A DNA stretch of 64,000 nt from an uncultured Planctomycetota bacterium (GCA_964385685.1 CAYLQD010000003.1:30361-94360), one strand, 5' to 3'. Positions 29,860 through 64,000 are shown, counted from the first letter of the stretch. Program-made: numbers and translations. Notes: generated from the letters alone by a model not told the origin.

Positions 29860-29867
29860 GAACGAGT

Positions 29868-46237: not shown

Positions 46238-46382
46238 GACGCTCCAAGCGGCTTCCGACTCAACGCGCACGTGGCCGCCCTCGCTCCCGCTTTACTTCAA
46301 TCCGCCCGGCTGCTATAGTCGATTAGTGGCCCCTTTCCTGATGTGTGAGCAAACTTTTTGGCGGGGCGCCCGTTAGGTAGTA

Positions 46383-46976: not shown

Positions 46977-46991
46977 GGCAGGGATGCACCA

Positions 46992-49481: not shown

Positions 49482-49654
49482 GACTATTGAGGTCCATGTT
49501 GGTAATGGAATCGCGGCAGCTTATCAAGAGATTCTTCGCTGACGCTCAGAATGACAGAACTATAGGTCACACAATGAGACATGTCATCCTGAGCGAAGCG
49601 AAGGACCTCTGTTGTTCCTCGTTGATGTTCCATTATCAGCATGGAGTTCAATAG
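49482..49654. mobile_element. MITE family A copy 2
   Basis: gactattgaggtccatgttggtaatggaa ... ttccattatcagcatggagttcaatag, with the inner REP-like doublet. Confidence 0.75.
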
Positions 49655-49678
49655 AAGGCCCCTATCGGAGGTTGCACC

Positions 49679-50668
49679 ATGTCCACCGCCCGGCGGCGCG
49701 GCTTCACGCTCATCGAGTTGTTGATGGTCGTCGTTGTCATCGCGATCCTCGTCGCGGTCGCGCTTCCCGTGCTCTTCAAGATTCTGAGCGACGCCGAGAT
49801 CGTCCAATGCCAGGGCCGCCTGAAGAACGTCGGCACGTGGTTCATCGCGGAGGCGGTCGTGCCCAGGAACCGGGCGTACCCCGCAGGGCACCCGACGCAG
49901 CGCACGTCGCCCGGCCGCTGGCCCACCATACACTCGGAACTGATATCCTCGCTGAAGACCGAGGAGATCACGCGGTGTCCGTCGGTCAAGCCCGAGTCCC
50001 CGCTCAGCTCGGACGTCTGGTCCACATGCTCCTACGCCTACGTCGGCAACATGAACCTGATGTACTCGTGCACGTGCAGTGAGTGCGGCAGCGATGGGAA
50101 GGACGTCTGGCGGCTGTACTGGTCGGGCGTGGACTACACCGGGGACCACGGGGACGCCGATGCCGGCGGCAATCTCAACAAGCTGAAAGGGCTCCCGCTG
50201 GCCGACAACCTCGTCTTCCTGCGGGGCAGCGTCGACGGAGACGAGCCGACCAGCCCGACCATCCCCGACCATCAGGACACGGCCGTGTTCACGAGCGACG
50301 ACCGCCCGGTGAAGTTCCGCGACCAGCGCGCCCTCCGCGCCATTCCCATGACGCCAGCCGACCACAACCGCAGCGTGCCCCTCGTCCTCGACATTCTCGT
50401 CTATCGAACGACGGGCACGACGGGTTTCCCGACCTCGAGCGCCACGAGCTGGAAGGCGAGCGACCTGGACATCACCGAGACCAACAAGTATGACGTGCTC
50501 TATGCCAACCACTGCAACACGTCCGCCACGAACAAGAGGGACTGGGGAATCAACATCTTCTACTCGAACGGACAGGTGAAGTGGAAGGGGTGGGACGACC
50601 TGCGATTCCAGGTGACGGTGAAGAAGGTCGTCGAGGACGCCAACAAGTACCACTCGTATTTCTATTGA
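49679..50668 (+). CDS. Prepilin-type N-terminal cleavage/methylation domain protein
   Basis: RRRG|FTLIELLMVVVVIAILVAVALP class III signal; C-terminal GINIFYSNGQV resembles the Planctomycete H-X9-DG motif region. Confidence 0.85.
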   Translation: MSTARRRGFTLIELLMVVVVIAILVAVALPVLFKILSDAEIVQCQGRLKNVGTWFIAEAVVPRNRAYPAGHPTQRTSPGRWPTIHSELISSLKTEEITRCPSVKPESPLSSDVWSTCSYAYVGNMNLMYSCTCSECGSDGKDVWRLYWSGVDYTGDHGDADAGGNLNKLKGLPLADNLVFLRGSVDGDEPTSPTIPDHQDTAVFTSDDRPVKFRDQRALRAIPMTPADHNRSVPLVLDILVYRTTGTTGFPTSSATSWKASDLDITETNKYDVLYANHCNTSATNKRDWGINIFYSNGQVKWKGWDDLRFQVTVKKVVEDANKYHSYFY

Positions 50669-50686: not shown

Positions 50687-52810
50687 TCACGGCGGCGGGG
50701 GCCCGCTCTTCTTCCTCAACGCGTCTATCTCGGCCTCAAGTTCGCCGATGTGGCGCGTCGCGTCGGCGTGCAGGTCGCCCCCCTCTTCGACGTAGAGCTG
50801 GACCTTCCTGAACAGCGCGATCGCCTGCTCCTTGAGCTTGATGTCGTCACCGCTCGCGTAGCGGAGGTCCCGCGCCCTGTTGTAGAACACCTTGGCCTGG
50901 TGACGCATGTCGGCGAGCCGCGTCTTGCCGACCGTGGCGATCGGATCCCAGCTCATCGCTCTCAGGTACAGCCGGCGCGCCTCCTTCGGGTCGTTGTCCT
51001 TCCGGAGGGCGGCGTCGCCCATGTCGCGGTACTCGAGTGCGATCTCCTTGCGCCGCTCCTTGTTGGCCAACCCGTTCAGCTTGTCGAGCGCGCGCTTGTG
51101 GTAGGCGTTCTTTGTGCTGGTCTCCTCGCGCACGGCGTCGTTCCAGAGGAACCTCGCCCGGTCGTAGTCCTTGGCGTCGTGGGCCTTCTGCGCCTCGTCG
51201 AGCATGTGCATGATGCGCTCGATCTTCGATGCCAGCGGGTCCAGCTCGGTCAGTCGGTGGTCGGCGATGAGCTTGATGGCCTCGGTCCCGCGGCCGGCCT
51301 CGTAGAGGGCCTTGGCGTTGCGGTGCCATCGCTCGCGCTCGAGTTCGCGCAGGCGGGCCGTGATGCGCTGCTGGAGCGCGGCCTTTCGCGGGCTCAGCGG
51401 CCCGCCGTCGGCGATCCCGTCGAGAATCTTCCGCGCGGCCATCAGCGAGGGGATCGTGTCTTCGCGGTATCGCGCGTGCGCCGCCCTGAGCTGCGCCTCT
51501 TCGCTCATCCGCTTGCGGGCCGAGCGGATGCCCCGCTCGATGCGCGGCTTGTGCGCGTCCGACGCAAACTTCCTCGCCGCGGTGTATTGCGTGATCGCCT
51601 CCTGCCATTTCCCCCCGTCGAGGGCCGCCTTCGCCAGCCGGAGCCGCCGTTCGCAGGCCGCGGCGACCGTGTCGGCGATCCGGACCTCGTACTTCGGGTA
51701 GATCGGGCTCGTCTTCGGGAGCTTCTGGAACTCGGCCAGCGCCTCCTCCGGCTTGTCCTCGCCGAGGAGCTTCAAGGCCCCCGCGACCACCGCCTCGTGG
51801 TGCTGCACGTCGTAGATCCAGTCGATGCGGTCCTCCGCGAACTGCTTCACCCGGCTCGTCACCCAGTTGCTTTCTCGCAGATCGCGCAGCGCCGACTCGA
51901 CCGAGAGCCAGTTGAACTCGTCGAACGACTTGCCCGACTTCTCCCATTCTCGGGCGATATCTCGAAGGATGCCGGCCACGGCGTAGGTCGGCCGGCCTTT
52001 GTGGGCCTCGGTCAGTTTCCCGATCGCCGCCTTGAACTCGCCCTTCTTCATGTCTTCGATGGCGGTGTCGGTCAGGTCGTTGTATCGCTGCCTCGGGAAC
52101 ATCGGACGCTGATTGTCGTCATCGTCGTCGCGCGGTTTCGAGGACGTCATCGCAAGTGCGATGATCAGCAGGAGCGCGACGGCGATGGCGCCGATGACGA
52201 GATAACGGTTTCGCTTCCGCTCCGAGTCGGCCTGGTCGGCGTAGTAGCCGGAGAGGTCGGTGGCCGGCGCGGCGCCGCGCGGCACGATCTCGACCTCGCG
52301 GCTCGTCCGCGGGTCCCGCAGATACATCCGCCCCTCCCGGGCGACGACCTGCGGCTGCAACGCCTCCGAGTCGTAGGCCTGGGGCACGAACGTGCCGTCG
52401 ACGGGGGTGTCGTCGGCGCCGGGCTCGTCGGCGAACCGCGGCGCGCCCCCGGGCGTCTCGAGCGGCGCGGTCGGCGGGGGCTCGGGCGCCGGCTGCTGCG
52501 GCGCCGCGGCCGCGGCGCCCGCCGCTGCGGGCGCGTCCAGCACGAGTTGGAACCCGCCCAGGAGCACCTTGTCGCCGTCCTTCAACACGCACGACGTCAC
52601 CTGGTTGCCGTTGACGAACGTGCCGTTGGAGCTGCCCAGGTCGCGGATCGTCAAGGCGCCGCCGTCGACGAAGCACTCGATGTGCTGCTTCGACACGTTG
52701 GAGCCCGCGACGACGATGTCGCAGGACGGATGCCGGCCGATGATGGTGCTGCCCTCGCGGAGGGGATAGGCCCGCTGCGCCCCGTCCTCTTCTTCTGCCC
52801 AAAACTGCAT
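50687..52810 (-). CDS. FHA-domain membrane protein with TPR-like C-terminal region
   Basis: IIGRHPSCDI...VSKQH...IRDLGSSNGTFVNG; TM; long helical repeats. Confidence 0.85.
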   Translation of the reverse strand: MQFWAEEEDGAQRAYPLREGSTIIGRHPSCDIVVAGSNVSKQHIECFVDGGALTIRDLGSSNGTFVNGNQVTSCVLKDGDKVLLGGFQLVLDAPAAAGAAAAAPQQPAPEPPPTAPLETPGGAPRFADEPGADDTPVDGTFVPQAYDSEALQPQVVAREGRMYLRDPRTSREVEIVPRGAAPATDLSGYYADQADSERKRNRYLVIGAIAVALLLIIALAMTSSKPRDDDDDNQRPMFPRQRYNDLTDTAIEDMKKGEFKAAIGKLTEAHKGRPTYAVAGILRDIAREWEKSGKSFDEFNWLSVESALRDLRESNWVTSRVKQFAEDRIDWIYDVQHHEAVVAGALKLLGEDKPEEALAEFQKLPKTSPIYPKYEVRIADTVAAACERRLRLAKAALDGGKWQEAITQYTAARKFASDAHKPRIERGIRSARKRMSEEAQLRAAHARYREDTIPSLMAARKILDGIADGGPLSPRKAALQQRITARLRELERERWHRNAKALYEAGRGTEAIKLIADHRLTELDPLASKIERIMHMLDEAQKAHDAKDYDRARFLWNDAVREETSTKNAYHKRALDKLNGLANKERRKEIALEYRDMGDAALRKDNDPKEARRLYLRAMSWDPIATVGKTRLADMRHQAKVFYNRARDLRYASGDDIKLKEQAIALFRKVQLYVEEGGDLHADATRHIGELEAEIDALRKKSGPPPP

Positions 52811-52815
52811 CGAGT

Positions 52816-54105
52816 TCACCCTCGTCTCTGCCGCAAGTACCGGTCGATCGCCCGGTCGTAGATGATCCGGAGCTTCTTGTGCCGGAGGTCGTTCTCGTCG
52901 GGGATCAGGACCTTCAGGTCGTTGATGGCCCGCACGACGCCCGGCGTGTCCGCGTCACGGAGCATCAAGAGCGCCCGGAACTTGATCTTGTCGAACTCCT
53001 CGTCGATTTCCTTCTCCGCGGCTCGCTCGCCGACGTCGGCCTCTTTGAAGAGAGCGGTCCCCGCCGGAGTCCGGACCGGCTCGATCATCTCGGCCGCCCT
53101 GGCGTACTGCTGCATGGCCAGATAAGTGTGCCCGCGCTGTCCGGCGGATTCTGCGCCCGCGAGCAGGTTCCGCGTGAGCTGCAGCCGCTCCGCGTTGCTC
53201 AGGCGCTCGGGCCCGCTGGCCCTGGGGACCTGGCCGCGAACGAGGATCCGCACGATACACCGCCGCCCCCCGGGGCCCCGCAGCCTGACGTCCGTCTGCC
53301 GGCCGACGTCGATGCCCCGGACGACCGCCATGAACCCGGAGTTCCGCTCCGCCGACGTCACCTCGATCGCGAGGGAGGCAACGTCGTTCTCAACGTGCTG
53401 TTCGTAGTATCGATCGCGCGGGTCGTAGTACGTCACCAGCCGCCCGCCCTCCATCCGCGTGTTCAGCCCGAGGTCGACGACCTTCTCCTCGTTGGCCTTG
53501 ACCATCACCGACTTGACGTTCTGCTCGACCGCTTGCCCGCCGGCCAGGTTCCACGCGATCGCGCCGACGACGATGATGGCGGCGAGCACGCCCAGATAGA
53601 TGAGCGCGCTGCGCGCCCCGCCGACCGCCGCCGCCTCCTCGACGCCGGTCTGCGCATCGGCCATCCCGCCCGGGCCGAACAGGTCGTCGACGAACACAGG
53701 CCGCTCGGCCAGGGCGCCCGCGGGTTGCGCCGGGGCCACCGCCTGGGACGCCGGGGGCGCCGGCGCCGCCGCCGCGGTCGGAGCCGGCTCGACCATCACC
53801 GCCTCCACGATCTGCTCCGAGCGGAACTCGATCGCCACGTCGCCCAGCTCGAACCGGTCGCCGGTCCCCACCGTCAACTCGCGGAGCGTCGCGCCTTCGA
53901 ACACGATCCCGTTGTGGCTGCCGAGGTCGGTCAGGACACACCGATCGCCGTCGAGCCGCACCCGCACGTGCTGGCGCGAGACCGACTGGTCGGGAACGAC
54001 GAAATCGTTCTGCGAACTCCGGCCGATCGTCGCGGCCCGGTCGGTCAGGACGAACTCCTTGCCGCTCAGCCGCGAGTTGATGATTCGGAGCTTCGCTCTT
54101 ATCAT
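52816..54105 (-). CDS. FHA-domain membrane protein
   Basis: TIGRSSQND...VSRQH...LTDLGSHNGI; Pro/Ala linker; TM; extracytoplasmic domain. Confidence 0.85.
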   Translation of the reverse strand: MIRAKLRIINSRLSGKEFVLTDRAATIGRSSQNDFVVPDQSVSRQHVRVRLDGDRCVLTDLGSHNGIVFEGATLRELTVGTGDRFELGDVAIEFRSEQIVEAVMVEPAPTAAAAPAPPASQAVAPAQPAGALAERPVFVDDLFGPGGMADAQTGVEEAAAVGGARSALIYLGVLAAIIVVGAIAWNLAGGQAVEQNVKSVMVKANEEKVVDLGLNTRMEGGRLVTYYDPRDRYYEQHVENDVASLAIEVTSAERNSGFMAVVRGIDVGRQTDVRLRGPGGRRCIVRILVRGQVPRASGPERLSNAERLQLTRNLLAGAESAGQRGHTYLAMQQYARAAEMIEPVRTPAGTALFKEADVGERAAEKEIDEEFDKIKFRALLMLRDADTPGVVRAINDLKVLIPDENDLRHKKLRIIYDRAIDRYLRQRRG

Positions 54106-54146
54106 TCGTGGGCAAATCCGCGCGACCGGACGACCGCGCCGGCGGC

Positions 54147-54494
54147 CTACTCGATGATCTCGAGCCGCACGCCGCGACGCAAACCCCGCCTCAGAGCCGT
54201 CCCAGAACTCAATTCTAGCACGCTCTCCGCAGACAGACAAGCCGATACCCGCCCGGGCCGCAGCCCCTCGACGACCTTGCACACCTCGAGCTGCTCGTCA
54301 AGGTACACCACGTCGATCGGGAACCTCATGCGGAACGTGTGGATCAGGCGGCAGGCCGGGAGCCACATGCCCTCGTCCTCGGGCAGCGCGTCGCGGCCCA
54401 GCAGGCCCCGCATCCGGTCGCGGGCCTTCCGCGCCACGTGCAGCCGCTCGACGACCGTCGTTCCGTCCTCTGCGAGGACCGCTCGGGCGCTCAT
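54147..54494 (-). CDS. DUF192 family protein
   Basis: ARDRMRGLLGR...EGMWL..C..IHTFRMRFPIDVVYLD...VLELSSG. Confidence 0.88.
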   Translation of the reverse strand: MSARAVLAEDGTTVVERLHVARKARDRMRGLLGRDALPEDEGMWLPACRLIHTFRMRFPIDVVYLDEQLEVCKVVEGLRPGRVSACLSAESVLELSSGTALRRGLRRGVRLEIIE

Positions 54495-55438
54495 GACAGC
54501 AGTTTGTAGTCCAGGAGCAGTTTCAGGGCGACGGGCCCCAGGATGATGAGAAAGACGGTCGGGAAAATGAAGAGAATCAGGGGCAGGAGAATCTTGACGG
54601 GTGCCTCCATCGCCTTCTTCTCCGCCATCTGCTCGCGGCGGACGCGCATCTGTTCGGCCTGGATCCGCAGGACCGGGCCGATGCTCGCGCCCAGCTCGTC
54701 CGCCTGGATGAGCGAGCCGGTCACGTTCGTCATCGCCTCCAGGTCGACGCGGTGGGCGAGCTGCCGGAGCGCCTCGGACCGCGCCTGCCCCATCTGGATC
54801 TGGCGGAGCAGCTCGCCGAACTCGTCCCCGAGGGGCGAGTCGGGAATCTTCTTCAGGATGCGGCCCAGCGCCGACGTGAAGTCCAATCCCGCCTCAACGG
54901 AAAGTGTCAGCAGGTCGAGGGCGAACGGGAGCGCGCGGAAGATGGCCGTCTTGCGCCGCTGGGTCTGCGCCTGCAGCCAGGCGAGCGGCCACAGCGAACC
55001 GCAGATGAAGCCGGCGGCCAGCATGAGCGTCCAGCCGGTCGAGGCGGTGCCCAGCGCGCCGACGGCCAAGCCGATCAGCGAGCAGAGAAACACGAGCCCG
55101 AAATACTCGTCGCCCACCAGTCCGTGCGGCGAGCCCGCCGCGATCAGGTTGCGTTCCGCGCGGTCGCGCAGCGACAGCCACGGCCCCTTCCGGCCCGTCT
55201 GCACGAACCGCTGCTCGGCGCGCAGCGTGAAGTAGCGCAGAAAGAGCCCGAACGGCCGGGAGAACGTGACGAGCAGACGGAAGGCGGGCGAGGCGATTCG
55301 CCCCCGCCGCTCCTCGTCGATGCGCGTCGCCTCGACGATCTCCGCCCGCATGCGCGCGATCGCCAGGACGAGCAGGAAGGCGCACCCCGCCCCCGACACG
55401 AGAATCACGGTCACCATCAGCGTTTCAGAAGCCTGCAT
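54491..55438 (-). CDS. tadC: Tad inner-membrane platform protein TadC (T2SS F family)
   Basis: LPFALDLLTLSVEAGLDF, QADELGASIGPVLRIQAEQMR.RREQMAEKKAMEAPVKILLPLILFIFP. Confidence 0.9.
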   Translation of the reverse strand: MQASETLMVTVILVSGAGCAFLLVLAIARMRAEIVEATRIDEERRGRIASPAFRLLVTFSRPFGLFLRYFTLRAEQRFVQTGRKGPWLSLRDRAERNLIAAGSPHGLVGDEYFGLVFLCSLIGLAVGALGTASTGWTLMLAAGFICGSLWPLAWLQAQTQRRKTAIFRALPFALDLLTLSVEAGLDFTSALGRILKKIPDSPLGDEFGELLRQIQMGQARSEALRQLAHRVDLEAMTNVTGSLIQADELGASIGPVLRIQAEQMRVRREQMAEKKAMEAPVKILLPLILFIFPTVFLIILGPVALKLLLDYKLLS

Positions 55439-55444
55439 AGCGCC

Positions 55445-56290
55445 TCACACATCGATGTTGACGATCTTCAGGATGGTCGCGATGCCGAGAATCTGGAGCG
55501 CGACAATGAGGGCGATCAGGCCCCAGCCGTAGATCGTGCTGTAAACGGGCTCCATCAGTTTCGGGTTGATCGCGTTGATGGCGATCCCCAGCAGGGGCGG
55601 CAGCGAGCAGATCAGGGCCGCCTGCCATTTGCCCTGCGCCGTCAGAGCCCTGATCTTGCCGTAGAGCCGGTGGCGCGAGCGGATCGTGTCGGCGATGTTG
55701 TCGAACACCTCGGTCAGGTTGCCGCCGACGTCGCGCGAGATCGTGATCGCCGTGACGACGAGGTCGAGATCCTCGCTCGGCATCCGGCCGAGCAGGTTCC
55801 CGAGCGCCTCCTCCATGCTCAGGCCGAACCGAAGCTGCTGGTTCACGAGCCGGAACTCCTGGCTGATGGGGTTGGGCATCTCGCGCTGAACCATGTCGAA
55901 CGCCTGGTGCAGGCTGAACCCCGCGCGGAGCGAGTTGCTGATGTTCATGAGCGCGTCGACGAGCTGTTCGCGGAACTTCACATCGCGGCGCTTCTTCAGC
56001 CACCGTATGGCGAGCGACGGGAGCGCGAACCCGACGAGTCCGAGGATGACGCCCCACGCGATGCTGCCGAAGACGAGGCCCGACATCACTCCGATGAGGA
56101 CGCTCGACGCGAACGAGACGTAGATCAGGTGCTGCATCGGGATGGTGAGGTACATCGAGTCGAGCGTGCGGCTCGCGCCCTCGACATACCGCTCTTCGTA
56201 GCTCTGCCAGCCGCTGCTGAAGAGCTGGAATCCGACGAGGACGAAGAGCGCGACGGCTCCCCCGCCCGAGAGCAGGATGGCGACGCTCAT
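55445..56290 (-). CDS. tadB: Tad inner-membrane platform protein TadB
   Basis: FREQLVDALMNISNSLRAGFSL, ISRDVGGNLTEV, IRALTAQGK, ILKIVNIDV. Confidence 0.9.
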   Translation of the reverse strand: MSVAILLSGGGAVALFVLVGFQLFSSGWQSYEERYVEGASRTLDSMYLTIPMQHLIYVSFASSVLIGVMSGLVFGSIAWGVILGLVGFALPSLAIRWLKKRRDVKFREQLVDALMNISNSLRAGFSLHQAFDMVQREMPNPISQEFRLVNQQLRFGLSMEEALGNLLGRMPSEDLDLVVTAITISRDVGGNLTEVFDNIADTIRSRHRLYGKIRALTAQGKWQAALICSLPPLLGIAINAINPKLMEPVYSTIYGWGLIALIVALQILGIATILKIVNIDV

Positions 56291-56373
56291 CACGGTGCCG
56301 CCGAAGTCGAATCCCACGCGTTTCTCCAGGTCACGACCCGAATCCCAATCGCGATCAGCCGCGGCGATTGGGG

Positions 56374-56586
56374 CTATTGCGGCACGCACTGATAATGGAC
56401 GCCGCGCTCTTGCGCCAGAGATTCTTCGCTAGCGCTCAGAATGACAGCCATTGCTCCGCAACTGCTCTCATAACTCGGTCCTGTCTTGCTGAGCCCTTCG
56501 CTTCGTTCAGGATGACACAACTGCAGCCCCTTGGGTTGAATATGTCATCCTGAGCGTTAGCGAAGGATCTCGCTTTTCAACAAAGC
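56374..56586. mobile_element. Composite/degenerate REP-bearing miniature element
   Basis: Left end ctattgcggcacgcactgataatgga resembles the family A TIR; three REP-like half-sites; right end ttttcaacaaagc resembles the TIR of the 11920-12049 element. Confidence 0.55.
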
Positions 56587-56592
56587 AAATCG

Positions 56593-56807
56593 GTAACACT
56601 TCAGCCCAGTGAAGGGCACGAAGTGCGGAAAACGGGACAGCCAGCGGGTGGCAGTCCCTGTTTTCCGCCTGCGTGTCTCGGCAGCGCTGCGGGCGAAAAA
56701 CGGCGACTGGCACCAGCGAAGCGAGTGAAACGAGCGAAGACGTGCCCGCTCCGAAGGTGCGCGTCACCGCTTTTCGCCCTCGCTACCCCACTTGGCTGAA
56801 GTGTTAC
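56593..56807. mobile_element. 215-bp MITE with perfect 14-bp TIRs and an 8-bp target-site duplication
   Basis: gtaacacttcagcc (56593-56606) and ggctgaagtgttac (56794-56807); flanking direct repeat gcaaatcg at 56585-56592 and 56808-56815. Confidence 0.85.
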
Positions 56808-56820
56808 GCAAATCGCAATC

Positions 56821-57014
56821 CTATTGAAGTTCATGTTGGTAATGGAACAGAGCCGAGAAACAGCAGAGGTCCCCGCCTCGATGGCGGGCAAGCTTCGCTT
56901 CGCTCAGGATGACACAACTAGAGCCCCTTGCACGGAGCATGTCATTCTGAGCGTCAGCGAAGAATCTCCGGAACGCATTGGTCGTTTCCATTGTCAACAT
57001 GCGACTCAATAATC
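56821..57014. mobile_element. MITE family A copy 3 (opposite orientation to copies 1 and 2)
   Basis: ctattgaagttcatgttggtaatggaa ... ttccattgtcaacatgcgactcaataatc; internal blocks nearly identical to copy 1. Confidence 0.75.
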
Positions 57015-57017
57015 GGC

Positions 57018-58670
57018 TTACCGCCCGCTCGGCGAAGCGAAGATGCTCATGTCCACCTCGTGGCCGCGCCGGCGCAGCTCGTGGAAGAACTCGGGCACCG
57101 TGCCCGTCGGCTCATGCGTCCCGAGCACCTCGCCGTTCGGGCCCAGGCCCGTCTGCTCGAACCGGAACACCTCCTGAAGCGTGATGATGTCCTGCTCCAT
57201 CCCGGTGATCTCGGTCACGGAGATGACGCGGCGCTTGCCGTCGCTCTGCCGGGCGATCTGAATGACCATGTCCATCGCCGACGCGACCTGGTCGCGGATC
57301 GCGCGCGTCGGCAGTTCCATCCCGGCCATGAGGACGAGGGTCTCGAGCCGGGAGAGGCAATCGCGAGGCGAGTTCGCGTGGATGGTCGTCAGCGAGCCGT
57401 CGTGCCCCGTGTTCATCGCCTGGAGCATGTCGAGCGCCTCGGGGCCGCGGACCTCGCCGACGATGATGCGGTCGGGCCGCATCCGCAGGCTGTTCATAAC
57501 GAGCTGCCGGATGGGGATCGCGCCCTTGTTCTCGATGTTCGGCGGCTTCGATTCGAGCCGCACGACGTGCTCCTGCGAGAGCTTCAGCTCGGCCGCGTCT
57601 TCGATCGTGACGATCCGTTCGTCGGCGGGGACGAACATCGAGAGCACGTTCAGGAGCGTCGTCTTGCCCGAGCCCGTGCCGCCCGAGATGATGATGTTGC
57701 GGCGGTGCTCGACGCACAGCCGGCAATACGCGGCCACGCCCGCCGGGAGCGTGCCGAACCCGATCAGGTCGTCGATCGTGAACGGCTCGGTCGCGAACTT
57801 TCGGATCGTGAGCGTCGGCCCGGTCAGCGAGAGCGGAGCGATGATGGCGTTGACGCGCGAGCCGTCGGCCAGCCGCGCATCGACCATCGGGCTGACCTCG
57901 TCGATCCGCCGGCCGATGGGGGCGAGGATCCGGCGGATCACCTCGACCACCTGCCGGTCGTCGGTGAACCGCTTGTCGGTCAGTTCGAGCTTGCCGCTCT
58001 TCTCGACGTAGATGTTGCTCCAGCCGTTGACCATGATCTCGTCGATCTCGTCATCGGCGAGCAGGTCTTCGATGGGCCCGAGCCCGAGCGCCTCGTCGGC
58101 GATCTCCTTGATGAGGTCGCGGTTCGACAGCCAGACGGGCACCTCGTCGGACAGGCGGTTGATGATGGTTTCGATGACCTTCTCGGTGCGGCTGCGGACC
58201 TCGTCGGGCGGGACGGTGCTGAGGTCGACGTGCCGCAGGTCGAGGTCCTGGATGAGCTTGTCGTGGATCTTGCGCTTCAGCTCGGGCGGGGTGTAGCGGC
58301 GGTCGGCCGCGGCCGGGTCCGCGGCCTTCGGCATCGCCATGGTCTTCGGCGCGGGGCCGATGGTCGCCGGCCCGGCCGCGCCGGTGCGGAACACGATGGT
58401 GAAATCGCCGAGCTGGATGATGGCGCCGTCGGGGAGCGGGACCTTGCCCTGGATCAGCTCGCCGTTGACGTAGGTGCCGTTGCGGCTCCTGAGATCGCGG
58501 ACGACGTGGCCGCCGTCGGCCGCGGCCAGCTCGCAGTGCTCGCGCGAGATGTTGACGCGGTCGAGCACGAGGTCGCAGGTGTCCTTCTTGCCGATGACGA
58601 AGCGGGGCCCGGCGATCTCGACGCGCCGCCGGCTGCCGTCCTTGCGGTCGGTCACGAGCAGATGGGCCAC
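57018..58670 (-). CDS. cpaF: CpaF/TadA pilus ATPase with N-terminal FHA domain
   Basis: FVIGKKDTCDLVL...ISREH...VRDLRSRNGTYVNG (FHA); GLGPIEDLL.D..IDEIMVNG, ISGGTGSGKTT, IEDAAEL, MRPDRIIVGEVRG, AMNTGHDGSLTTIHAN. Confidence 0.93.
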   Translation of the reverse strand: MAHLLVTDRKDGSRRRVEIAGPRFVIGKKDTCDLVLDRVNISREHCELAAADGGHVVRDLRSRNGTYVNGELIQGKVPLPDGAIIQLGDFTIVFRTGAAGPATIGPAPKTMAMPKAADPAAADRRYTPPELKRKIHDKLIQDLDLRHVDLSTVPPDEVRSRTEKVIETIINRLSDEVPVWLSNRDLIKEIADEALGLGPIEDLLADDEIDEIMVNGWSNIYVEKSGKLELTDKRFTDDRQVVEVIRRILAPIGRRIDEVSPMVDARLADGSRVNAIIAPLSLTGPTLTIRKFATEPFTIDDLIGFGTLPAGVAAYCRLCVEHRRNIIISGGTGSGKTTLLNVLSMFVPADERIVTIEDAAELKLSQEHVVRLESKPPNIENKGAIPIRQLVMNSLRMRPDRIIVGEVRGPEALDMLQAMNTGHDGSLTTIHANSPRDCLSRLETLVLMAGMELPTRAIRDQVASAMDMVIQIARQSDGKRRVISVTEITGMEQDIITLQEVFRFEQTGLGPNGEVLGTHEPTGTVPEFFHELRRRGHEVDMSIFASPSGR

Positions 58671-58674
58671 GGGC

Positions 58675-59496
58675 TTATCTCCCGCCGCCGCCGGGCCTCG
58701 AGGGCGAAGCCGGGGGGGGCTTCTCGACGGCCGCCTTGCGGATGAGGGTGTCGAGGTTGTCGAGCGTGATCTTGTCGATCTTGCTGGGGTCCCGGCCGGT
58801 CGCGTCGGCGGGCCCGCGGATCACGAGGTGGAGCTTGCCCTGGTCGGCGAGGAACGCGAGCAGGTTCGCCTGCAGCGGCTGCACGCGGAGCGTCACGGTC
58901 GAGTAGGTCGCGTAGTCGCGCCGCTGCCGCGCCGACCGGAAGCTGCCCGGCACCGAGCGCGAGTGGAGATCGGTCGCGACGACCCGCATCCCCGTCAGGA
59001 CCGTCTGCGTGACGGGCTCGATGGGCGCGTTCGGGTCGCGGCGGACGCGGAGGGTGACGAGCACGTCGACGATTGTCCCGGGCAGGAGCCGGCCCGCGCA
59101 GCCGGTGACCTTGTCGACCGGGATGGTGATCTGGCGGTAGCCGGCGGGTGTCCTGGCCGCGGGATCGGCCGCCTCCTCGCCCTCCTCGAAATGGATCCAG
59201 GTGAGGACCGTCCCGGCTCTGACCTGCCTCTGGATGGTCCTGCCGACGACGTTGGTCAACTCGCGCGCCAGAATCACGCGGCCGTCCCGAATCATGTTCT
59301 GGTCCGCATCGTCCTCGCCCAGCATGTCGTTCCGGATCACCTCGCCCGCCTTGATGTCTCGGCCGGCCACGAGCACCTTGACCGTCTTCTTCGAGCCCTG
59401 GGCCTTCTGCTCTATCTGCACGATGTGGGCCCGCAGGCCGAGGGCGGCGATGAAGCCGAGCACGATGGCGACCACGAGGGCGACTTTCGATTTCAC
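58675..59496 (-). CDS. cpaB: Flp pilus assembly protein CpaB/RcpC
   Basis: VLVAGRDIKAGEVI (SAF), ITIPVDKVTGCAGRLLPGTIVDVL, TVTLRV, LHLVIR. Confidence 0.88.
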   Translation of the reverse strand: MKSKVALVVAIVLGFIAALGLRAHIVQIEQKAQGSKKTVKVLVAGRDIKAGEVIRNDMLGEDDADQNMIRDGRVILARELTNVVGRTIQRQVRAGTVLTWIHFEEGEEAADPAARTPAGYRQITIPVDKVTGCAGRLLPGTIVDVLVTLRVRRDPNAPIEPVTQTVLTGMRVVATDLHSRSVPGSFRSARQRRDYATYSTVTLRVQPLQANLLAFLADQGKLHLVIRGPADATGRDPSKIDKITLDNLDTLIRKAAVEKPPPASPSRPGGGGR

Positions 59497-59537
59497 GGTG
59501 ATGCCTCCGAACTGGAAGGGACGGGCCGAAGCGGCGG

Positions 59538-60365
59538 CTAGAGGGCTGTGCCCTCGGGCAGCCAGGGCCGCTCCGCCCAAAACACCACGACTACTATCTT
59601 ACCGGTTTTGGGCTCCTGGTCAACCGCGACCAGACACTGCTCGCGCCCGCGCGAAAACGACAACAGCGCGTGGCCCGCGAAGTTCTCGGTCAGCGTCGCG
59701 CTCGATTCGGCGCGCTCGCGCCATCGGTGCTCGGCCATGCCGCTGCGGATGTCCTCGACGAGCCCGCTGGGCCGGCCCCATGCGTCGTAGAACGCGAGCA
59801 CCGAGTCGACCCCGCCGAGGTTTTCGATGCAGAGCACGCGCGTCGCGCGCGGCGGCTTCGGCACGCCGGGCGGCTCGCGGCCCGGCGCCTCGCCGCCCGC
59901 GCCCGCCGACCCCTCGGCCAACGGCATCGAGCCGACGAAATACTGCGACCCGCCCGACTCCGGCGTGTCGAACGCGACGACGCCGACAACGGCCCCGTCC
60001 TTCGTGCCATACGAGAGGACCGAGCAGCCCGAGCCGACGGACGAGAGCATCGGCATCTCCGACCGGCCGGCCGTGTCGGCCGCGCCGCGGCCGCGGTACT
60101 CGCGGATGACGTCCTCCGCCGGCAGGCGGGACCGATACTGTGCGAACCGCGCCTCGCTGCCGTTGAGCACGACGGGATACGAGCGAACGAACGTCGACCC
60201 GCGGACGGGCTCGAGCAGCGGATCGCCGGACCCGACGTGGTAGGCGTCGCGGCGGCCGCGGTCGATGAGCGCCCGGCCCTGGACCACGGCGACGGCGACG
60301 ATGGCCGCGGTCAGGAGCGCCATCAGGCCGACGCGCCGAAGCGTCCCGGGTTGGATGCGTCTCAT
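59538..60365 (-). CDS. Hypothetical membrane-anchored protein of the Tad locus
   Basis: GGAAGGAG RBS; N-terminal TM; no family recognised; embedded in the operon. Confidence 0.65.
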   Translation of the reverse strand: MRRIQPGTLRRVGLMALLTAAIVAVAVVQGRALIDRGRRDAYHVGSGDPLLEPVRGSTFVRSYPVVLNGSEARFAQYRSRLPAEDVIREYRGRGAADTAGRSEMPMLSSVGSGCSVLSYGTKDGAVVGVVAFDTPESGGSQYFVGSMPLAEGSAGAGGEAPGREPPGVPKPPRATRVLCIENLGGVDSVLAFYDAWGRPSGLVEDIRSGMAEHRWRERAESSATLTENFAGHALLSFSRGREQCLVAVDQEPKTGKIVVVVFWAERPWLPEGTAL

Positions 60366-60382
60366 GAGCCGACTCCTTCCGA

Positions 60383-61519
60383 TCAGTTCGGTTCCCAGAA
60401 TTGCTCGTCGCCGCCGAAGTTGGGGTAGTGCGGCAGCTCGCCCGAGCTGCGCATCTGCGTGTGCCCCGTCAGGGTGTCGATCTGGTGGCTGTCTCCGCCG
60501 GCCGGGTTCGTCACCTCGCGCCGCTTCGTGTCGCGGACCATCGACTGGAACTGCGTATTCAGCTCGACCTCGTCGAGCGCCCACTCCTCGATGTCGATGT
60601 AGTCGGGATGGTAGAGGTGCGTCATCTCGACGCGGTGGCGCTCGATCCAGTCCTGAAGCTCCTCGGTCGTGAGTTCCGGGATGTGATCGTCGAGCAGCCT
60701 GTGTGCCTGGACGTATTGCCCGTCGGCCGAGAGGCCCCGGCTGCTCCGCGTGGTGACGACAAACTGGATCTCGTCACCGACAAGCTTGTACTGCCCGGTC
60801 GCGACGGTCGAGTAGATGATCTCGCTCATGTCCTCGAACATCTCGCGGACCTCGCCGGGCTCGGGCACGTCGGCCGGACTGGCGGCGGACTCGGTCAGCG
60901 CGAGGTCGCCGTCGGTGTCGGCGTAGAATTGCTCGGTCACGGTGCCGCGGGCGGGCCCCGCCTCGCTCTGGTCGCCGGAGGCGTCCATGGCGTACTCGCC
61001 GCCGAAGTGCATGCGTTCCTTGTGGAGCGAGAGCCATCCGAGGTACATCATCGCGAAGATGATGAGCAGCAGCACGGGGAGCAGGATGACGAGTTCGACG
61101 GCGGCGCTGCCGCGGCGGCGGGCAGCGCGAGGTGACCGGCCGCGTTGGCGGGCAAGAATGCCCGCCCCACTGAACGGAACACGTCTTGGTCTGATGACAA
61201 GCCCCTTCCCCGGGGCCCCGACTGTGTCGGGGTCGCCGAAGGCGACAGGAGGCGGGTCAGGGGGCTTCTTGCGGCCTGCGGCGGGCTCGGCCCTCTCATG
61301 GGGGCCGAGCCCGTTGGCGTTTGCTTTCCGCAAACGCTCACGTCTCGCGGAGCATCTAGCTCTGCGAGACGCGGCCGCCCGGACGGAGTCCGGGCCACCC
61401 AACGATGAATCCCCGATGCGAGGGTGTCCGACGGAGCAAACACTGCTCGGGTGGGACCGACATTCCTGTCCGCCAGGAACAGCAGGCCGCCGACCGGTTT
61501 CACATCCTGTTACGCGCAT
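60383..61519 (-). CDS. TadE-like minor pilin (5' region contains an inverted REP-like pair; true start uncertain)
   Basis: RRRG|SAAVELVILLPVLLLIIFAMMYLG; the only in-frame start with an RBS (GAGGAG) is the ATG at 61519. Confidence 0.7.
   Translation of the reverse strand: MRVTGCETGRRPAVPGGQECRSHPSSVCSVGHPRIGDSSLGGPDSVRAAASRRARCSARRERLRKANANGLGPHERAEPAAGRKKPPDPPPVAFGDPDTVGAPGKGLVIRPRRVPFSGAGILARQRGRSPRAARRRGSAAVELVILLPVLLLIIFAMMYLGWLSLHKERMHFGGEYAMDASGDQSEAGPARGTVTEQFYADTDGDLALTESAASPADVPEPGEVREMFEDMSEIIYSTVATGQYKLVGDEIQFVVTTRSSRGLSADGQYVQAHRLLDDHIPELTTEELQDWIERHRVEMTHLYHPDYIDIEEWALDEVELNTQFQSMVRDTKRREVTNPAGGDSHQIDTLTGHTQMRSSGELPHYPNFGGDEQFWEPN
61147..61474. repeat. Inverted REP-like pair (REPIN-like) inside the TadE ORF
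   Basis: ggcgggcaagaatgcccgccccac (61147-61170) and gtgggaccgacattcctgtccgcc (61451-61474) are near reverse complements; internal hairpins. Confidence 0.55.
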
Positions 61520-61531
61520 CGGTCACGCTCC

Positions 61532-63790
61532 TCAGTGGTCGATGGCCTCGGGCAGGTCTTCGGACGTGTGGTCGAAGGCGTCGCCCTGGCGGTTTCGCAT
61601 GTCGCGGAACTTCGCGGCGACGTCGTCGCGTATGCGGCGGTGCTGGCTGTACTCATCCGGCGGGTCGGGGTCGTGCCAGGTCGCGCCGCCGCGGGTGTGC
61701 CCGAGCCAGGTGTACTGGCCGCCGGCGAGGCCGCGCCACATGAAGTTCGTCCCGGTGTCGGGCGGGACGATGTCGATGTGCTCGCCCTTGATCGCCTCGC
61801 GCGTCGACACGAGCACGGCCGTCCACACGGGCTCGTAGAGGTTCTGGTAGCTCCGCTCGACCCACACGTCCATCTCGTCGGTCGTCTCGAACGTCGTGCG
61901 CCACTCGGGCGAGCCGCCGCCGCTGTTGTCGAGGAAGGCGCAGCGCGCGCTCGCGACGGCGAAATAGCCCCACGACGGGTTCTCGAAGATGCGGATGCCG
62001 CGGTCGCCACGTTCGAGCATCGCGTTGTCTTTGTCGCGCCACACGGCGACGTTGATGCCGAACTTGAGGAAGTCGTCCGTCAGCCGCATCGGGCGCGGGA
62101 CCGCGTTCAGGTTGATGGTCACGTATTTCTTGTTGTCGCGGCCGAACATGTCGCTCGCGATCTTCCGCACGAACTCGTTGCCGTCGGCGTCGGTGTAGTT
62201 CGTCACGGCCGGGTCCCACGACTCGCGCGTCTGGTGGTAGGCGTCGTTCGAGACGAGGTTGCCGGTGACGGGGTTGTACCACTGCATCCACGCGGGCTGC
62301 GAGCCGCCCTGCCCGACAGGATCGTTGTCGTAGACGGCGTGGTGGGCGAGCCGCTGGATGCTGTCGGGGAAGAGATACGACGCGTTCGACACGTATTCGT
62401 AGATCCAGAAGTTGTCGTCGCGGTAGGGCCACTGGAGGCGGTGGCGGGTGCCGCGTTCGCTCAGGACGCGCCACCGGCCGTCGGCGTCGGCGGTCGTGAG
62501 GCCGTTGATCTCCAGGTGCGGCTGGGCGCCCATGTCGTCGATGACGAACGTCGCCGGGCCGACGCGCGCCATGATCCGCACGCTGTCGCGCCGGAGCTGA
62601 ATGCCCGTGTTCCCGATTGTCACGCGGTCGGGAATGTGATACGTCATCGAGCCGATATGGATCGTGTTGGGCAGGTCGAGGGTCGCGTTGCCCGGCAGGG
62701 CGATGGAGTTTGACTGCTGAACCGGGATCGTCTTGCCACCGACGGTGATCTCCTCGCGGAACCCGGGCACGGGCACCCATTCGGACCCGTCCCACGTCTC
62801 GAGGTGGCCGTCGGGCCCGCGTCGCACGCCGACCGACGCGCCCGGCGGGGTGACGGTGATCATGAAGCCACCGTCGCGGTACGGTTTGTACTGGACATCG
62901 ACGTCGTCGGAGACCGCGTGGATGGCCCAGCCGATCCCCTGGAGATACTGCGCGTTGACGTGGACCTCATCGGTCCCCGTCACGTGCGCGATGACGTGCG
63001 TGTCGGAGGGCCGCTCGATCTCGAGCGTGTTGTTGCCCGAGGTCAGGATGTAGTGGTTTGGGCCGAGCCGCTGCACTTCGATCTGGGCGCCGTCGCTGCT
63101 CGTGATGATCCAGTGGTAGTCGCCGACGCGGCGGATCTCGATCATGTAGCCGGTGTTCGACGTGATCTGCCAGCCGTTGTTCGGGTCGATCTGGTCGATG
63201 TCGAGCCGCAGGTATCCGTCGAGGTGCGGCTGGAACGTGAAGTCGGGGAAGAGGGCTAGCGCCTCGATGCCCTTGTCGGATCCGCCGACGTTGTGCATTG
63301 CGTTCATGACGGCCGTCCGGCGGATCTCGCGCTTGACGAGCTTGTCGCCGCTGAGGGCGATGGCCCGCTCCATCCGGCCGATGATGCCGAGCCACGTCCG
63401 CGAACGCGGGACCCACTCCTCGGCCTCCTGCATCGCGCGGTTGTAGCGGCCGACGGGATCGGGCACGCCGACGACTTCATCGGACGGATACGGCGGGCCC
63501 GTCTCCTTCATCTCGGCGAGCGTGCCGAACACCGTCACGTTCGTCGCGTAGCGGATCATGTTGTAGTAGATGTAGGCCATCCCGTCGTTGAGGAAGGCGA
63601 CGGTCGAGACGAGGTTGGCCTCGGCGAGCGCGCCGCTCCGGGCTGCGGCATCGGCCGCGTTCTGGACCTCGATCCGGTGCGACACGACCTGCCCGACGTT
63701 GAAGATCATCGCGGTGAACGTGACGAGGATGAAGAGCGAGATCGCGCCGAACACCATCGTCTGGCCGTTCGTGTCGCGGAGGAGTCTCAT
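61532..63790 (-). CDS. TadG-like pilus protein (752 aa) with a large beta-rich insertion
   Basis: DTNG|QTMVFGAISLFILV...IEVQNAADAAARSGA; closing VNVAVW...FAVASAR...WTAVLV; central Gly/Thr/Ile-rich beta segment. Confidence 0.8.
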   Translation of the reverse strand: MRLLRDTNGQTMVFGAISLFILVTFTAMIFNVGQVVSHRIEVQNAADAAARSGALAEANLVSTVAFLNDGMAYIYYNMIRYATNVTVFGTLAEMKETGPPYPSDEVVGVPDPVGRYNRAMQEAEEWVPRSRTWLGIIGRMERAIALSGDKLVKREIRRTAVMNAMHNVGGSDKGIEALALFPDFTFQPHLDGYLRLDIDQIDPNNGWQITSNTGYMIEIRRVGDYHWIITSSDGAQIEVQRLGPNHYILTSGNNTLEIERPSDTHVIAHVTGTDEVHVNAQYLQGIGWAIHAVSDDVDVQYKPYRDGGFMITVTPPGASVGVRRGPDGHLETWDGSEWVPVPGFREEITVGGKTIPVQQSNSIALPGNATLDLPNTIHIGSMTYHIPDRVTIGNTGIQLRRDSVRIMARVGPATFVIDDMGAQPHLEINGLTTADADGRWRVLSERGTRHRLQWPYRDDNFWIYEYVSNASYLFPDSIQRLAHHAVYDNDPVGQGGSQPAWMQWYNPVTGNLVSNDAYHQTRESWDPAVTNYTDADGNEFVRKIASDMFGRDNKKYVTINLNAVPRPMRLTDDFLKFGINVAVWRDKDNAMLERGDRGIRIFENPSWGYFAVASARCAFLDNSGGGSPEWRTTFETTDEMDVWVERSYQNLYEPVWTAVLVSTREAIKGEHIDIVPPDTGTNFMWRGLAGGQYTWLGHTRGGATWHDPDPPDEYSQHRRIRDDVAAKFRDMRNRQGDAFDHTSEDLPEAIDH

Positions 63791-63806
63791 CGCATTGCCC
63801 TCGCTC

Positions 63807-64000
63807 TCACAGGTCCGGGATGACCGGGTGCCCGTCGACGCCCCGCATCTCTTCGTCCCACGGCACGGGCCGCGTGTAGGTGCTGCGCAGGATGATGTGC
63901 GGCGCGCCCGCGAATGTCTCGAACAGGCCCTCGGGTATGTGGTCCGGATCGTGCGGCTCCGATATCGGCGTGAAGAGCATGTTGACCACCGGCACGACCA
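63807..64000 (-). CDS. C-terminal part of an upstream Tad-locus gene (probably TadE-like)
   Basis: Open frame from the window edge to a TGA 16 bp before the TadG start; ...PVVNMLF...ILRSTYTRPVPW. Confidence 0.45.
   Translation of the reverse strand, partial: VVPVVNMLFTPISEPHDPDHIPEGLFETFAGAPHIILRSTYTRPVPWDEEMRGVDGHPVIPDL

Follow-up and report, generated by a model that had tools for sequence, protein, structure and literature searches.

At one end of the analysed DNA lies what is probably a Tad (type IVc) pilus system of the FHA-CpaF lineage, encoded in a single operon of which the distal two-thirds are covered, and a component-by-component orthologue of the Myxococcus Kil system (cluster II plus KilF). 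Its gene content, orthology, domain layout and conservation across PVC bacteria were established in the present analysis, and the operon is a new, unsplit member of the Kil/FHA-Tad lineage that has no secretin in cis and is probably gated by phosphothreonine. Since this planctomycete operon matches Kil, the machine type extends beyond the known predatory groups.

Gene content and conservation of the operon

All positions refer to the window, i.e. the whole 64-kb stretch of DNA that was analysed (Table 1). Every element of the FHA-decorated Tad locus named by the initial annotation was recovered with Pfam, invariably on the minus strand: the CpaF/TadA-type ATPase, the TadB and TadC pair (adjacent T2SSF proteins), CpaB/RcpC and the TadE/TadF/TadG pseudopilins were all present. 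The attribution of the DNA to a probable planctomycete was likewise upheld, the closest named homologues and genome loci all being metagenome-assembled genomes (MAGs) of Planctomycetota.

Table 1. Coordinates and main features of the FHA-Tad operon
Feature	Coordinates	Strand	Family match or remark
Operon	50687-64000	-	TadE (partial), TadG, TadF-like, unknown bitopic protein, CpaB, FHA-CpaF, TadB, TadC, DUF192, two FHA-TM proteins
TadE, C-terminal 63 codons (KilM-type)	63807..64000	-	truncated by window end
TadG-like large minor pilin (KilN-type N-terminus)	61532..63790	-	Pfam PF13400, Tad/TadG N-terminal motif
TadF-like minor pilin (KilL-type N-terminus)	60383..61519	-	Pfam TadE motif, residues 137-167
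Unknown protein of ~275 aa, N-terminal hydrophobic anchor	59538..60365 (ORF 59538-60584)	-	orthologue kept by close relatives
CpaB / KilB	58675..59496 (ORF 58675-59580)	-	Pfam RcpC + SAF
FHA-CpaF (class III Tad ATPase; KilF-type)	57018..58670	-	Pfam FHA 2e-18 + T2SSE 1.3e-61
Spacer, dispersed palindromic repeats (REP/MITE-like)	56390..57017		628 bp, inserted between cpaF and tadB
TadB / KilG-type platform protein	55445..56290 (ORF open to 56389)	-	Pfam T2SSF
TadC / KilH-type platform protein	54491..55438	-	Pfam T2SSF
DUF192 protein, between TadC and F1	54147..54494	-	Pfam PF02643, E 4e-19
F1: FHA, disordered linker, TM helix, Ig-like beta-sandwich, TPR-like helical domain	52816..54105	-	Pfam FHA 7.6e-15
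F2: FHA, disordered linker, TM, ~480-aa periplasmic helical region	50687..52819	-	Pfam FHA E 1.9e-19

The TadE stub (63807-63998) was 68% identical to residues 126-188, the C-terminus, of TadE from the related locus L001, and the operon therefore continues past the window end. Profile comparisons with hhalign paired the minor pilins with those of Kil: TadE with the KilM family (99.3%), TadG with the KilN family (97.8%, limited to 84 N-terminal columns, the C-terminal domain being non-homologous) and the TadF-like protein with the KilL family (95.7%, 50 N-terminal columns). For the variable, prey-directed C-terminal 'Tip' domains of Kil, no hhalign match was obtained here, and just the N-terminal pilin segments were aligned (50-84 columns). 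The start of the TadF-like gene is uncertain, as the TadG stop and the pilin motif are separated by roughly 400 nt that are unique and rich in hairpins, and start-codon analysis found no canonical start (ATG, GTG or TTG) nearby. Concerning the protein encoded just before CpaB, orthologues were found at the same position in four relatives (L001, L004, L008 and L009); neither Pfam nor NCBIfam assigned it to a family, and no match with MXAN_4653, 4654, 4656 or 4657 was obtained with hhalign.

CpaB scored 138.8 bits against NCBIfam TIGR03177 (cut-off 71) and displayed 28% identity with KilB over 232 aa. The layout of FHA-CpaF, with the FHA domain at residues 25-88, a low-complexity segment from about 95 to 130 and the T2SSE domain from 195 to 480, fits class III; its nearest solved structure in the PDB was Caulobacter CpaF (E 3e-120), and it was 59% identical to KilF of M. 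xanthus (360 trimmed columns). TadB, for which the Met at 56290 is the likely start, was 40.8% identical to KilG (277 aa, 222 bits), and TadC was 44% identical to KilH of M. xanthus AM003 over 238 aa.

The two FHA-TM proteins, referred to here as F1 (ORF 52816-54282, with a true start probably at 54105 according to alignment to relatives) and F2, were compared with Myxococcota families after removal of their FHA domains. F1 matched the MXAN_4649 family (hhalign 98.7%, E 3e-15, 376 columns) and F2 the MXAN_4648 family (99.9%, E 1.7e-36, 465 columns); these matches were reciprocal, and the cross pairs reached 95% and 38%. As judged from these profiles, F1 is an orthologue of the MXAN_4649 family and F2 of the MXAN_4648 family. 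AF2 models of F1 had a pLDDT of 81 at full length and of 92 for the periplasmic part, the latter consisting of nine strands and then five helices. Foldseek matches of the full model were to FHA alone, and the periplasmic part had no PDB match at E <= 1e-3. The C-terminal domain of F2 had 88 matches among 1.84e9 representative proteins, all with an identical layout. A T3SS ring protein of the SctD/PrgH/YscD type was considered for F1 and rejected: F1 has no alpha-beta-beta-alpha-beta ring-building domains, and its match to Pfam PF16697 is confined to the FHA domain.

TadC shares the motif LDLLTLSVEAGLDFT, and when 185,579 species genomes were scanned for a TadC motif, at least 566 relatives were obtained. 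PVC MAGs and Myxococcota, M. xanthus AM003 among them, made up the best 80, and those of the 80 loci with enough downstream sequence had the order TadB-TadC-(DUF192)-FHA(-FHA) in all but a few PVC variants. The full operon, as seen in relatives with 59-77% CpaF identity, reads Flp-A24-TadE-TadG-x-x-CpaB-FHA-CpaF-TadB-TadC-DUF192-FHA-FHA, and the same operon was found in many MAGs of Planctomycetota, Brocadiia and Lentisphaerales. The PVC carriers were diverse, with GC contents from 49% to 70%, and all of them were uncultured MAGs.

Proposed mechanism and biological output

In the proposed mechanism, an A24 peptidase would cleave the Flp prepilin, both genes being expected just past position 64000 by synteny, and a CpaF hexamer would polymerise Flp on the inner-membrane platform made of TadB and TadC. 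The TadE, TadG and TadF-like minor pilins would prime the fibre and make its tip, CpaB would be the periplasmic part, and the pilus would reach the surface via an outer-membrane channel encoded elsewhere. The bitopic F1 and F2 would surround or dock on the platform as a scaffold, while the FHA domains of F1, F2 and CpaF would read phosphothreonine marks set by a Hanks-type kinase, with the result that the pilus would be assembled on signal only.

Such phosphothreonine gating, already put forward in the initial annotation, is plausible, since both FHA-TM partners retain the canonical FHA residues Arg, Ser, His and Asn (GR, SxxH and NG in F2) and a Hanks kinase gene lies directly downstream of the FHA pair, on the same strand, in four PVC relatives (L015, L018, L055 and L084). 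Two observations count against the preferred reading. In the window, no kinase or phosphatase adjoins the operon, and a 1379-aa Hanks kinase is located 40 kb from it. The FHA domain fused to CpaF has, in every one of 113 planctomycete homologues, Gly-Lys where Gly-Arg is canonical, which places a Lys at the phosphate-binding Arg position.

Regulated adhesion or cell-contact sensing is taken as the default output of the machine, and killing as a possible one. Chances appear even that the locus encodes a Tad pilus of the ordinary kind, serving adhesion or biofilm formation, with FHA domains as a lineage-wide regulatory add-on and the Kil function as a myxobacterial specialisation of an older machine. 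FHA-CpaF proteins form an established class whose members come mainly from non-predatory betaproteobacteria (PMC12019362), and one is present in Moraxella bovis; the operon is widespread among PVC MAGs of very different GC content. Phylogeny is compatible with this view. In bootstrapped NJ trees of core proteins, built from the supermatrix rows of Seef et al. and PVC sequences, the PVC, Kil and beta/gamma sequences formed one clade in 98-100% of bootstraps, within which PVC and all Kil sequences were joined in 59% (TadB+TadC) or 30% (three proteins) of them, the interior of the clade being without resolution, which also counts against the Kil-orthologous reading; the CpaF phylogeny, initially suggested as a check, did not group the locus with Kil specifically. 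An ordinary adhesion pilus fits less well with two other observations: such Tad loci usually have a secretin and TadZ in cis, and the F1/F2 pair has so far been found with Kil-type systems and in PVC bacteria only, the inspected Moraxella and Burkholderia loci having none.

A functional analogue of Kil, i.e. a pilus assembled at cell contacts and acting in contact-dependent killing or predation by uncultured planctomycetes, is an unlikely reading of the locus. All comparable components of Kil cluster II do have orthologues here, including the two FHA-TM proteins that are missing from ordinary Tad loci, and TadZ is lacking as in Kil. Additionally, RHS toxin genes adjoin a related Tad locus with FHA-CpaF on a plasmid of Moraxella, and a planctomycete with phagocytosis-like predation is on record (reference cited in PMC12428579). 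However, the 'Tip' domains, which have been linked to prey recognition and killing and are restricted to myxobacteria (Herrou et al. 2025, PMC12075869), are not conserved here; no toxin, T3SS* or lytic gene adjoined the operon, whether in the window or in relatives, and nothing resembling a secretin, KilC included, occurred near PVC operons. Equally doubtful is the broader proposal that uncultured Planctomycetota and Lentisphaerota carry the ancestral, unsplit Kil machine and use it, like Myxococcus, for contact-dependent antagonism. If true, it would imply that members of the PVC superphylum live, unnoticed so far, as predators or cell killers, and the signature of contact-triggered Tad machines would be the pair of FHA-TM proteins instead of the fusion of FHA to the ATPase.

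Missing components and intergenic repeats

Secretin, Flp and A24 peptidase had been described as missing from the window, in agreement with our Pfam scans, which covered about 30 additional genes, and with tblastn searches using two secretins and one TadZ. The Burkholderia and Moraxella secretins had no tblastn match in the window or in 84 loci, and no TadZ was found by these searches in the 64 kb window, nor was it matched in related loci. The suggestion that the missing parts may lie beyond 64000 fits the gene order of relatives for Flp and the A24 peptidase, which are encoded directly upstream of TadE in six of them (L001, L002, L009, L011, L015 and L026), and not for the secretin, which in relatives was absent within about 10 kb on either side and, among some 20 PVC loci, was found in cis in none. 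With no such gene close by in relatives, the secretin does not simply lie past 64000, and a surface pilus therefore requires an unseen outer-membrane component, a point against the preferred reading; the secretin may be encoded elsewhere in the genome.

The lack of a secretin in cis from all these PVC loci would be accounted for if the machine were a short periplasmic pseudopilus (T2SS-like or 'endopilus') and not a surface fibre, and a T2SS-like delivery role has been discussed for the Kil pilus by Herrou et al. (PMC12075869). This is nevertheless improbable, because Flp, the peptidase and the TadE/F/G tip pilins form a complete series, in which TadG, with 750 aa, is typical of exposed tips. 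Moreover, secretins can be encoded elsewhere: in M. xanthus, KilC belongs to a different cluster than KilG and KilH (Seef et al. 2021, PMC8460266, supplementary table 1).

The spacer between cpaF and tadB, 25 bp long in relative L001, is here filled with a repeat motif that occurred 6 times in the window (0.04 expected), copies being also present elsewhere in the window. Both this 628-bp insertion and the approximately 400 extra nt before the TadF-like gene are points against the preferred reading of a Kil-orthologous Tad operon. They would suit a decaying operon copy in which repeat insertions uncoupled or disabled parts, and the TadF-like gene has no nearby ATG, GTG or TTG, but decay is very improbable, as 11 of 11 reading frames are intact, with lengths as in relatives and GC3 values of 0.82-0.93, and REP elements between genes are common in working operons.

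Comparison with known systems

Among other envelope machines with FHA-dependent gating, an N-terminal cytoplasmic FHA or FHA-like domain on a bitopic or peripheral trans-envelope component is also a feature of T6SS Fha1/TagH (with PpkA-PppA) and of T3SS SctD/YscD/PrgH. Matches to Pfam PF16697, NCBIfam TagH and NCBIfam SctD were sub-threshold and covered the FHA domain only, and the periplasmic part of F1 (Ig-like sandwich and TPR-like bundle) differs from SctD, with no sequence relation beyond FHA.

Canonical Tad/Cpa systems (Caulobacter CpaA-F, Aggregatibacter Tad and the Burkholderia plasmid locus L006) have the same core of Flp, A24, CpaB, CpaF, TadB, TadC and TadE/F/G. Unlike the planctomycete operon, they are free of FHA domains and include genes for the secretin CpaC/RcpA and for TadZ/CpaE in cis, and their core proteins were the farthest of the comparison set (30-32% identity for trimmed TadB+TadC, 48% for CpaF).

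Class III CpaF proteins consist of an N-terminal FHA domain, a disordered linker and the CpaF core, and are mostly betaproteobacterial (Yen et al. 2025, PMC12019362). The FHA domain on the ATPase corresponds to this class and is not specific to Kil, and the plasmid locus of Moraxella bovis (NZ_CP087831) has an FHA-CpaF without FHA-TM partners. Core proteins of class III loci (this plasmid and the Achromobacter xylosoxidans CpaF; PMC12019362) fell into the same strongly supported clade as those of the planctomycete operon. In the Moraxella FHA-CpaF, homology extends across the fusion (44% identity for residues 26-546, FHA included), and the Gly-Lys variant is present; a DUF192 gene directly follows TadC, at a position identical to that in PVC relatives, and TadZ is lacking, as here. 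The Moraxella locus differs by a secretin between CpaB and CpaF and by the TadE and RHS toxin genes that follow.

The likeness to Kil pointed out in the initial annotation proved to be true homology, since TadB, TadC and CpaB match KilG, KilH and KilB, the FHA-TM partners match outside their FHA domains, and the gene order is collinear with M. xanthus kil cluster II, in agreement with supplementary table 1 of Seef et al. (PMC8460266). In Myxococcus, Kil kills prey on contact, is recruited to prey contacts and cooperates with a needle-less T3SS; besides cluster II, it includes the cluster I accessories KilD, a cytoplasmic FHA-TPR protein, and MXAN_3104, together with KilC, a short secretin devoid of N0. 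An FHA-fused ATPase is common to this operon and to Kil (cluster II MXAN_4648-4661 plus KilF; PMC8460266, PMC12075869), and in both the TadE/TadG/TadF-type minor pilins lie upstream and the MXAN_4649 and MXAN_4648 types follow TadC/KilH, in the same order; both are also devoid of TadZ (for Kil, see the discussion of Seef et al., PMC8460266). They differ in that the planctomycete genes are united in one operon, where the ATPase gene stands between those for CpaB and TadB, that DUF192, absent from Myxococcota cluster II loci, follows TadC, that no KilC-type secretin is nearby, and that homology is lacking for the C-terminal (Tip) domains of the minor pilins and for the protein encoded ahead of CpaB. 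The two also differ in host: the present operon belongs to a PVC bacterium, and Kil was described as confined to Myxococcales, Bradymonadales and Bdellovibrionales. In terms of identity, KilG+KilH of M. xanthus were closest to the PVC sequences, trimmed TadB+TadC of M. xanthus showing 45-51% identity with PVC bacteria versus 42% with Bdellovibrio and 39-42% with Bradymonadales.

Gene content of the operon in the window and in relatives

The minus strand from position 50687 to the end of the window carries eleven tightly packed genes, identified by Pfam, with third-position GC being used to pick out true reading frames at a window GC content of about 67% (see table). The gene list of the initial annotation proved accurate in content and position. 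NCBIfam has no specific family for the two FHA-TM proteins F1 and F2 or for the unknown proteins. The remainder of the window consists of housekeeping genes (pheT, dnaN, gyrB, rpsB, tsf, frr and uvrD), and the grouping of the first three indicates that the window probably lies near the chromosomal replication origin.

Features of the window and of related loci (window positions unless a locus is named; operon genes from promoter-proximal to distal)
Feature	Position	Strand	Length	Remark
TadE, C-terminal stub	63807-63998	minus		68% identity to TadE of a relative
TadG-like protein		minus	752 aa	Pfam
TadF-like protein		minus		Pfam; TadE-type pilin motif
No-family protein		minus	~275 aa
CpaB		minus		Pfam
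FHA-CpaF fusion		minus	550 aa	Pfam
TadB		minus		Pfam
TadC		minus		Pfam
DUF192		minus		Pfam
F1		minus	about 429 aa	Pfam; N-terminal FHA
F2		minus	710 aa	Pfam; N-terminal FHA
TadG to TadF-like spacer	61100-61531
Palindromic repeat copies	11941, 32023, 49534, 56424, 56544, 56941 (and 31974-32213, 49484-49604)
ECF/anti-sigma/337-aa group	46377-48725, 49655-50668
Hanks-type Ser/Thr kinase	7718-11857	minus	1379 aa	Long C-terminal extension
pheT, dnaN, gyrB	12064-18260
Low-GC region	23100-30000
TPR protein	25035-26201
Ankyrin-repeat protein	26315-27346
tRNA-Lys	29784-29859	minus
Hanks kinase, PVC locus L015	14994-15779	operon strand		After second FHA-TM gene
Hanks kinase, PVC locus L055	9900-10685	operon strand		After second FHA-TM gene
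Hanks kinase, PVC locus L018	15171-15911	operon strand		After second FHA-TM gene
Hanks kinase, PVC locus L084	11917-12738	operon strand		After second FHA-TM gene
RHS toxin genes and lytic transglycosylase, L087	11875-16425, 19251-20465			Moraxella bovis plasmid NZ_CP087831

No secretin, Flp pilin, prepilin peptidase or TadZ was found in the window, and the first three had initially been suspected beyond position 64000. FHA-CpaF homologues number in the thousands; nearly all of the top 120 are fused to FHA, and the named ones among them are labelled Planctomycetota (taxon names are those of the record titles). On contigs whose FHA-CpaF homologues are 77%, 61% and 59% identical, the entire operon was visible in the order one or two small Flp, A24 peptidase, TadE, TadG, two unknowns, CpaB, FHA-CpaF, TadB, TadC, (DUF192), FHA protein, FHA protein, with neither secretin nor TadZ within about 10 kb on either side. 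This layout partly explains the genes missing from the window: Flp and peptidase are expected just past 64000, as had been supposed, and the secretin is not. Its apparent lack in cis raises the puzzle of how a fibre passes through the planctomycete outer membrane.

Mapping of all loci by tblastn gave the layout Flp-A24-TadE-TadG-...-CpaB-FHA-CpaF-TadB-TadC-DUF192-FHA-FHA in the PVC superphylum and TadE-...-CpaB-TadB-TadC-FHA-FHA in Myxococcota. The FHA-TM pair after TadC was missing in some PVC variants (L026, L019 and L020) and the operon of another (L004) was split after CpaF, so the accessory module is not universal in the clade.

Spacers and neighbouring sequence

A family of palindromic repeats (core GTCATYCTGAGCGNNNGCGAAG) was present in six copies in the window, against 0.04 expected, and was intergenic every time. 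Three copies fill the cpaF-tadB spacer, which has 76-nt units and flanking sequence in common with the tsf-rpsB spacer; the family looks like a dispersed, REP/MITE-like one. A second odd spacer, about 400 nt of unique, hairpin-rich sequence, separates the TadG stop from the TadF-like pilin motif, the distance being about 10 nt in relatives. The only canonical start of the TadF-like gene, an ATG at 61519, would add a 125-aa Arg/Pro-rich leader, and an ATT near 61150 would yield one of normal length. A promoter and terminator scan of both spacers gave nothing above background.

Beside the operon lie genes for an ECF sigma factor, for a zf-HC2 anti-sigma protein of 582 aa and for a protein of 337 aa that carries a prepilin N-methylation motif, an arrangement kept in two relatives (L001 and L002). 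In kil cluster II, the edge gene MXAN_4661 likewise bears a putative zinc-finger annotation. Further away, a region with a GC content of about 0.60, as against about 0.67 elsewhere, encodes an ankyrin-repeat protein and a TPR protein, abuts tRNA-Lys and may be an integrated island. An rRNA operon in this low-GC stretch (23-30 kb) was discarded, Rfam giving tRNA-Lys only.

FHA proteins and candidate kinases

An AlphaFold2 model of F1, built on a shallow alignment of 14 homologues, comprised an FHA domain (1-98), a disordered linker (101-154), a TM helix (155-188) and a periplasmic part that combines a sandwich of nine strands (196-292) with a TPR-like domain of five helices (304-428). A separate model of the periplasmic part reached a pLDDT of 92 and a pTM of 0.82 and had no significant PDB match, so the 'PrgH/YscD-like' label of the family reflects the FHA domain only; a PrgH/YscD-like ring was ruled out by this model. 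The periplasmic domain of F2 had just 88 matches among 1.84 billion representative proteins, all of 600-730 aa and of the same layout, and to judge from its sequence is different from generic TPR.

The canonical Gly-Arg, Ser-x-x-His and Asn-Gly residues are kept in the FHA domains of both F1 and F2. The CpaF-fused FHA carries an invariant Gly-Lys (113/113), a variant also present in Moraxella FHA-CpaF. Phosphothreonine gating via the three FHA domains can reasonably be proposed by analogy with Fha1/PpkA of the T6SS, an analogy also used by Seef et al. (PMC8460266). A Hanks kinase gene directly follows F2 on the same strand in four PVC loci, and a kinase lies upstream of CpaB in a Kofleriaceae locus (L070). 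The kinase nearest to the operon within the window, the 1379-aa protein, lies 40 kb away and is a possible writer for these FHA readers.

Relationship with Kil and other Tad systems

The FHA domain on the ATPase is not specific to Kil: FHA-CpaF had already been defined as 'class III', mostly betaproteobacterial (Yen et al., PMC12019362), and it is present in a Tad locus on a Moraxella bovis plasmid. This locus encodes CpaB, secretin, a 576-aa FHA-CpaF (44% identical to that of the window across the fusion), TadB, TadC and DUF192, then TadE and RHS toxin genes, and lacks FHA-TM partners and TadZ. A canonical Burkholderia plasmid Tad locus has secretin and TadZ and no FHA. When FHA-CpaF was searched against 72,556 plasmids by tblastn, none of the hits extended over the FHA part; this was a sensitivity artefact, since the Moraxella plasmid ATPase carries FHA. 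On L087, the FHA-CpaF/DUF192 operon is directly followed by two genes for RHS repeat toxins and one for a lytic transglycosylase, which hints that the FHA-CpaF Tad lineage is possibly tied to antagonism outside predators too.

Trees of the core proteins were computed by NJ from trimmed alignments, with bipartition bootstraps, after adding PVC sequences to published supermatrix rows for CpaF, KilH and KilG. PVC, Kil (Myxococcus, Bradymonadales, Bdellovibrionota) and a beta/gamma group formed a clade with 98-100% bootstrap, leaving out Caulobacter-type, Desulfovibrio-type and Burkholderia-plasmid Tads. Within it, PVC grouped with all Kil in 59% (TadB+TadC) or 30% (three proteins) of bootstraps, and the window CpaF was 59.2% identical to KilF and 59.8% to Burkholderia gladioli CpaF. 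The ATPase phylogeny proposed in the initial annotation was uninformative inside the large clade and neither confirmed nor refuted the likeness to Kil. It is the F1/F2 pair that discriminates, not the ATPase.

In M. xanthus, kil cluster II contains MXAN_4648 (FHA + TPR), MXAN_4649 (FHA), KilH, KilG, KilB, unknowns and pilins, while the FHA-fused KilF sits in cluster I (Seef et al., PMC8460266). A scan of 185,579 genomes (one per species) for a 15-residue motif common to the window TadC and myxobacterial KilH (LDLLTLSVEAGLDFT) yielded at least 566 relatives, the best 80 being Planctomycetota, Candidatus Brocadiia and Lentisphaerales MAGs and Myxococcota, including M. xanthus AM003, Corallococcus, Archangium and Pyxidicoccus. 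The AM003 locus is collinear with the window operon but has extra genes among the pilins and lacks CpaF and DUF192, both present in the window. Its KilG matched TadB (40.8% over 277 aa, 222 bits), its KilH TadC (44% over 238 aa, 192 bits) and its KilB CpaB (28% over 232 aa, 71 bits). Locus L005, a frameshifted nanopore contig, served for rough comparison only. Minor pilins paired (TadE with KilM, TadG with KilN, TadF-like with KilL) through N-terminal pilin segments only, in agreement with Herrou et al. (PMC12075869), according to whom Tip domains cannot be recognised beyond myxobacteria. The ~275-aa protein had no orthologue among MXAN_4653, 4654, 4656 and 4657.

The comparison of the FHA-TM accessory proteins was the decisive one. 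After removal of FHA domains, alignments of the families, drawn from 16 loci of PVC and 29 of myxobacteria, were compared using hhalign, whose E-values are pairwise and without database correction: F2 matched the MXAN_4648 family (99.9% probability, E 1.7e-36, 465 columns) and F1 the MXAN_4649 family (98.7%, E 3e-15, 376 columns), cross-pairs being much lower (95% and 38%). Together with the KilG, KilH and KilB matches, this turns the likeness to Kil first noticed in the window into real homology. The reading that fits best is a regulated Tad pilus from the FHA-CpaF lineage, truly homologous to the Kil machine and carried by a PVC bacterium. No toxins, T3SS genes or conserved Tip domains were found near the operon; as for killing, the sequence speaks neither for nor against it, and the carriers are all uncultured.

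A literature search found no paper describing an FHA-CpaF or Kil-like system in Planctomycetes. Kil-like systems had been reported as restricted to Myxococcales, Bradymonadales and Bdellovibrionales (Seef et al., PMC8460266), and this restriction to three predatory 'deltaproteobacterial' orders had been used as an argument that the machine is specific to predation. That many PVC genomes encode the same set of parts implies either a looser link between machine and predation than proposed or more suspected contact-killers. The compact PVC operon could be used for studying how the MXAN_4648 and MXAN_4649 orthologues act on the Tad platform. The markers are separable: the FHA-ATPase fusion and DUF192 are widespread, Moraxella included, and the narrower marker is the FHA-TM pair, observed to date with Kil-type systems and in PVC.
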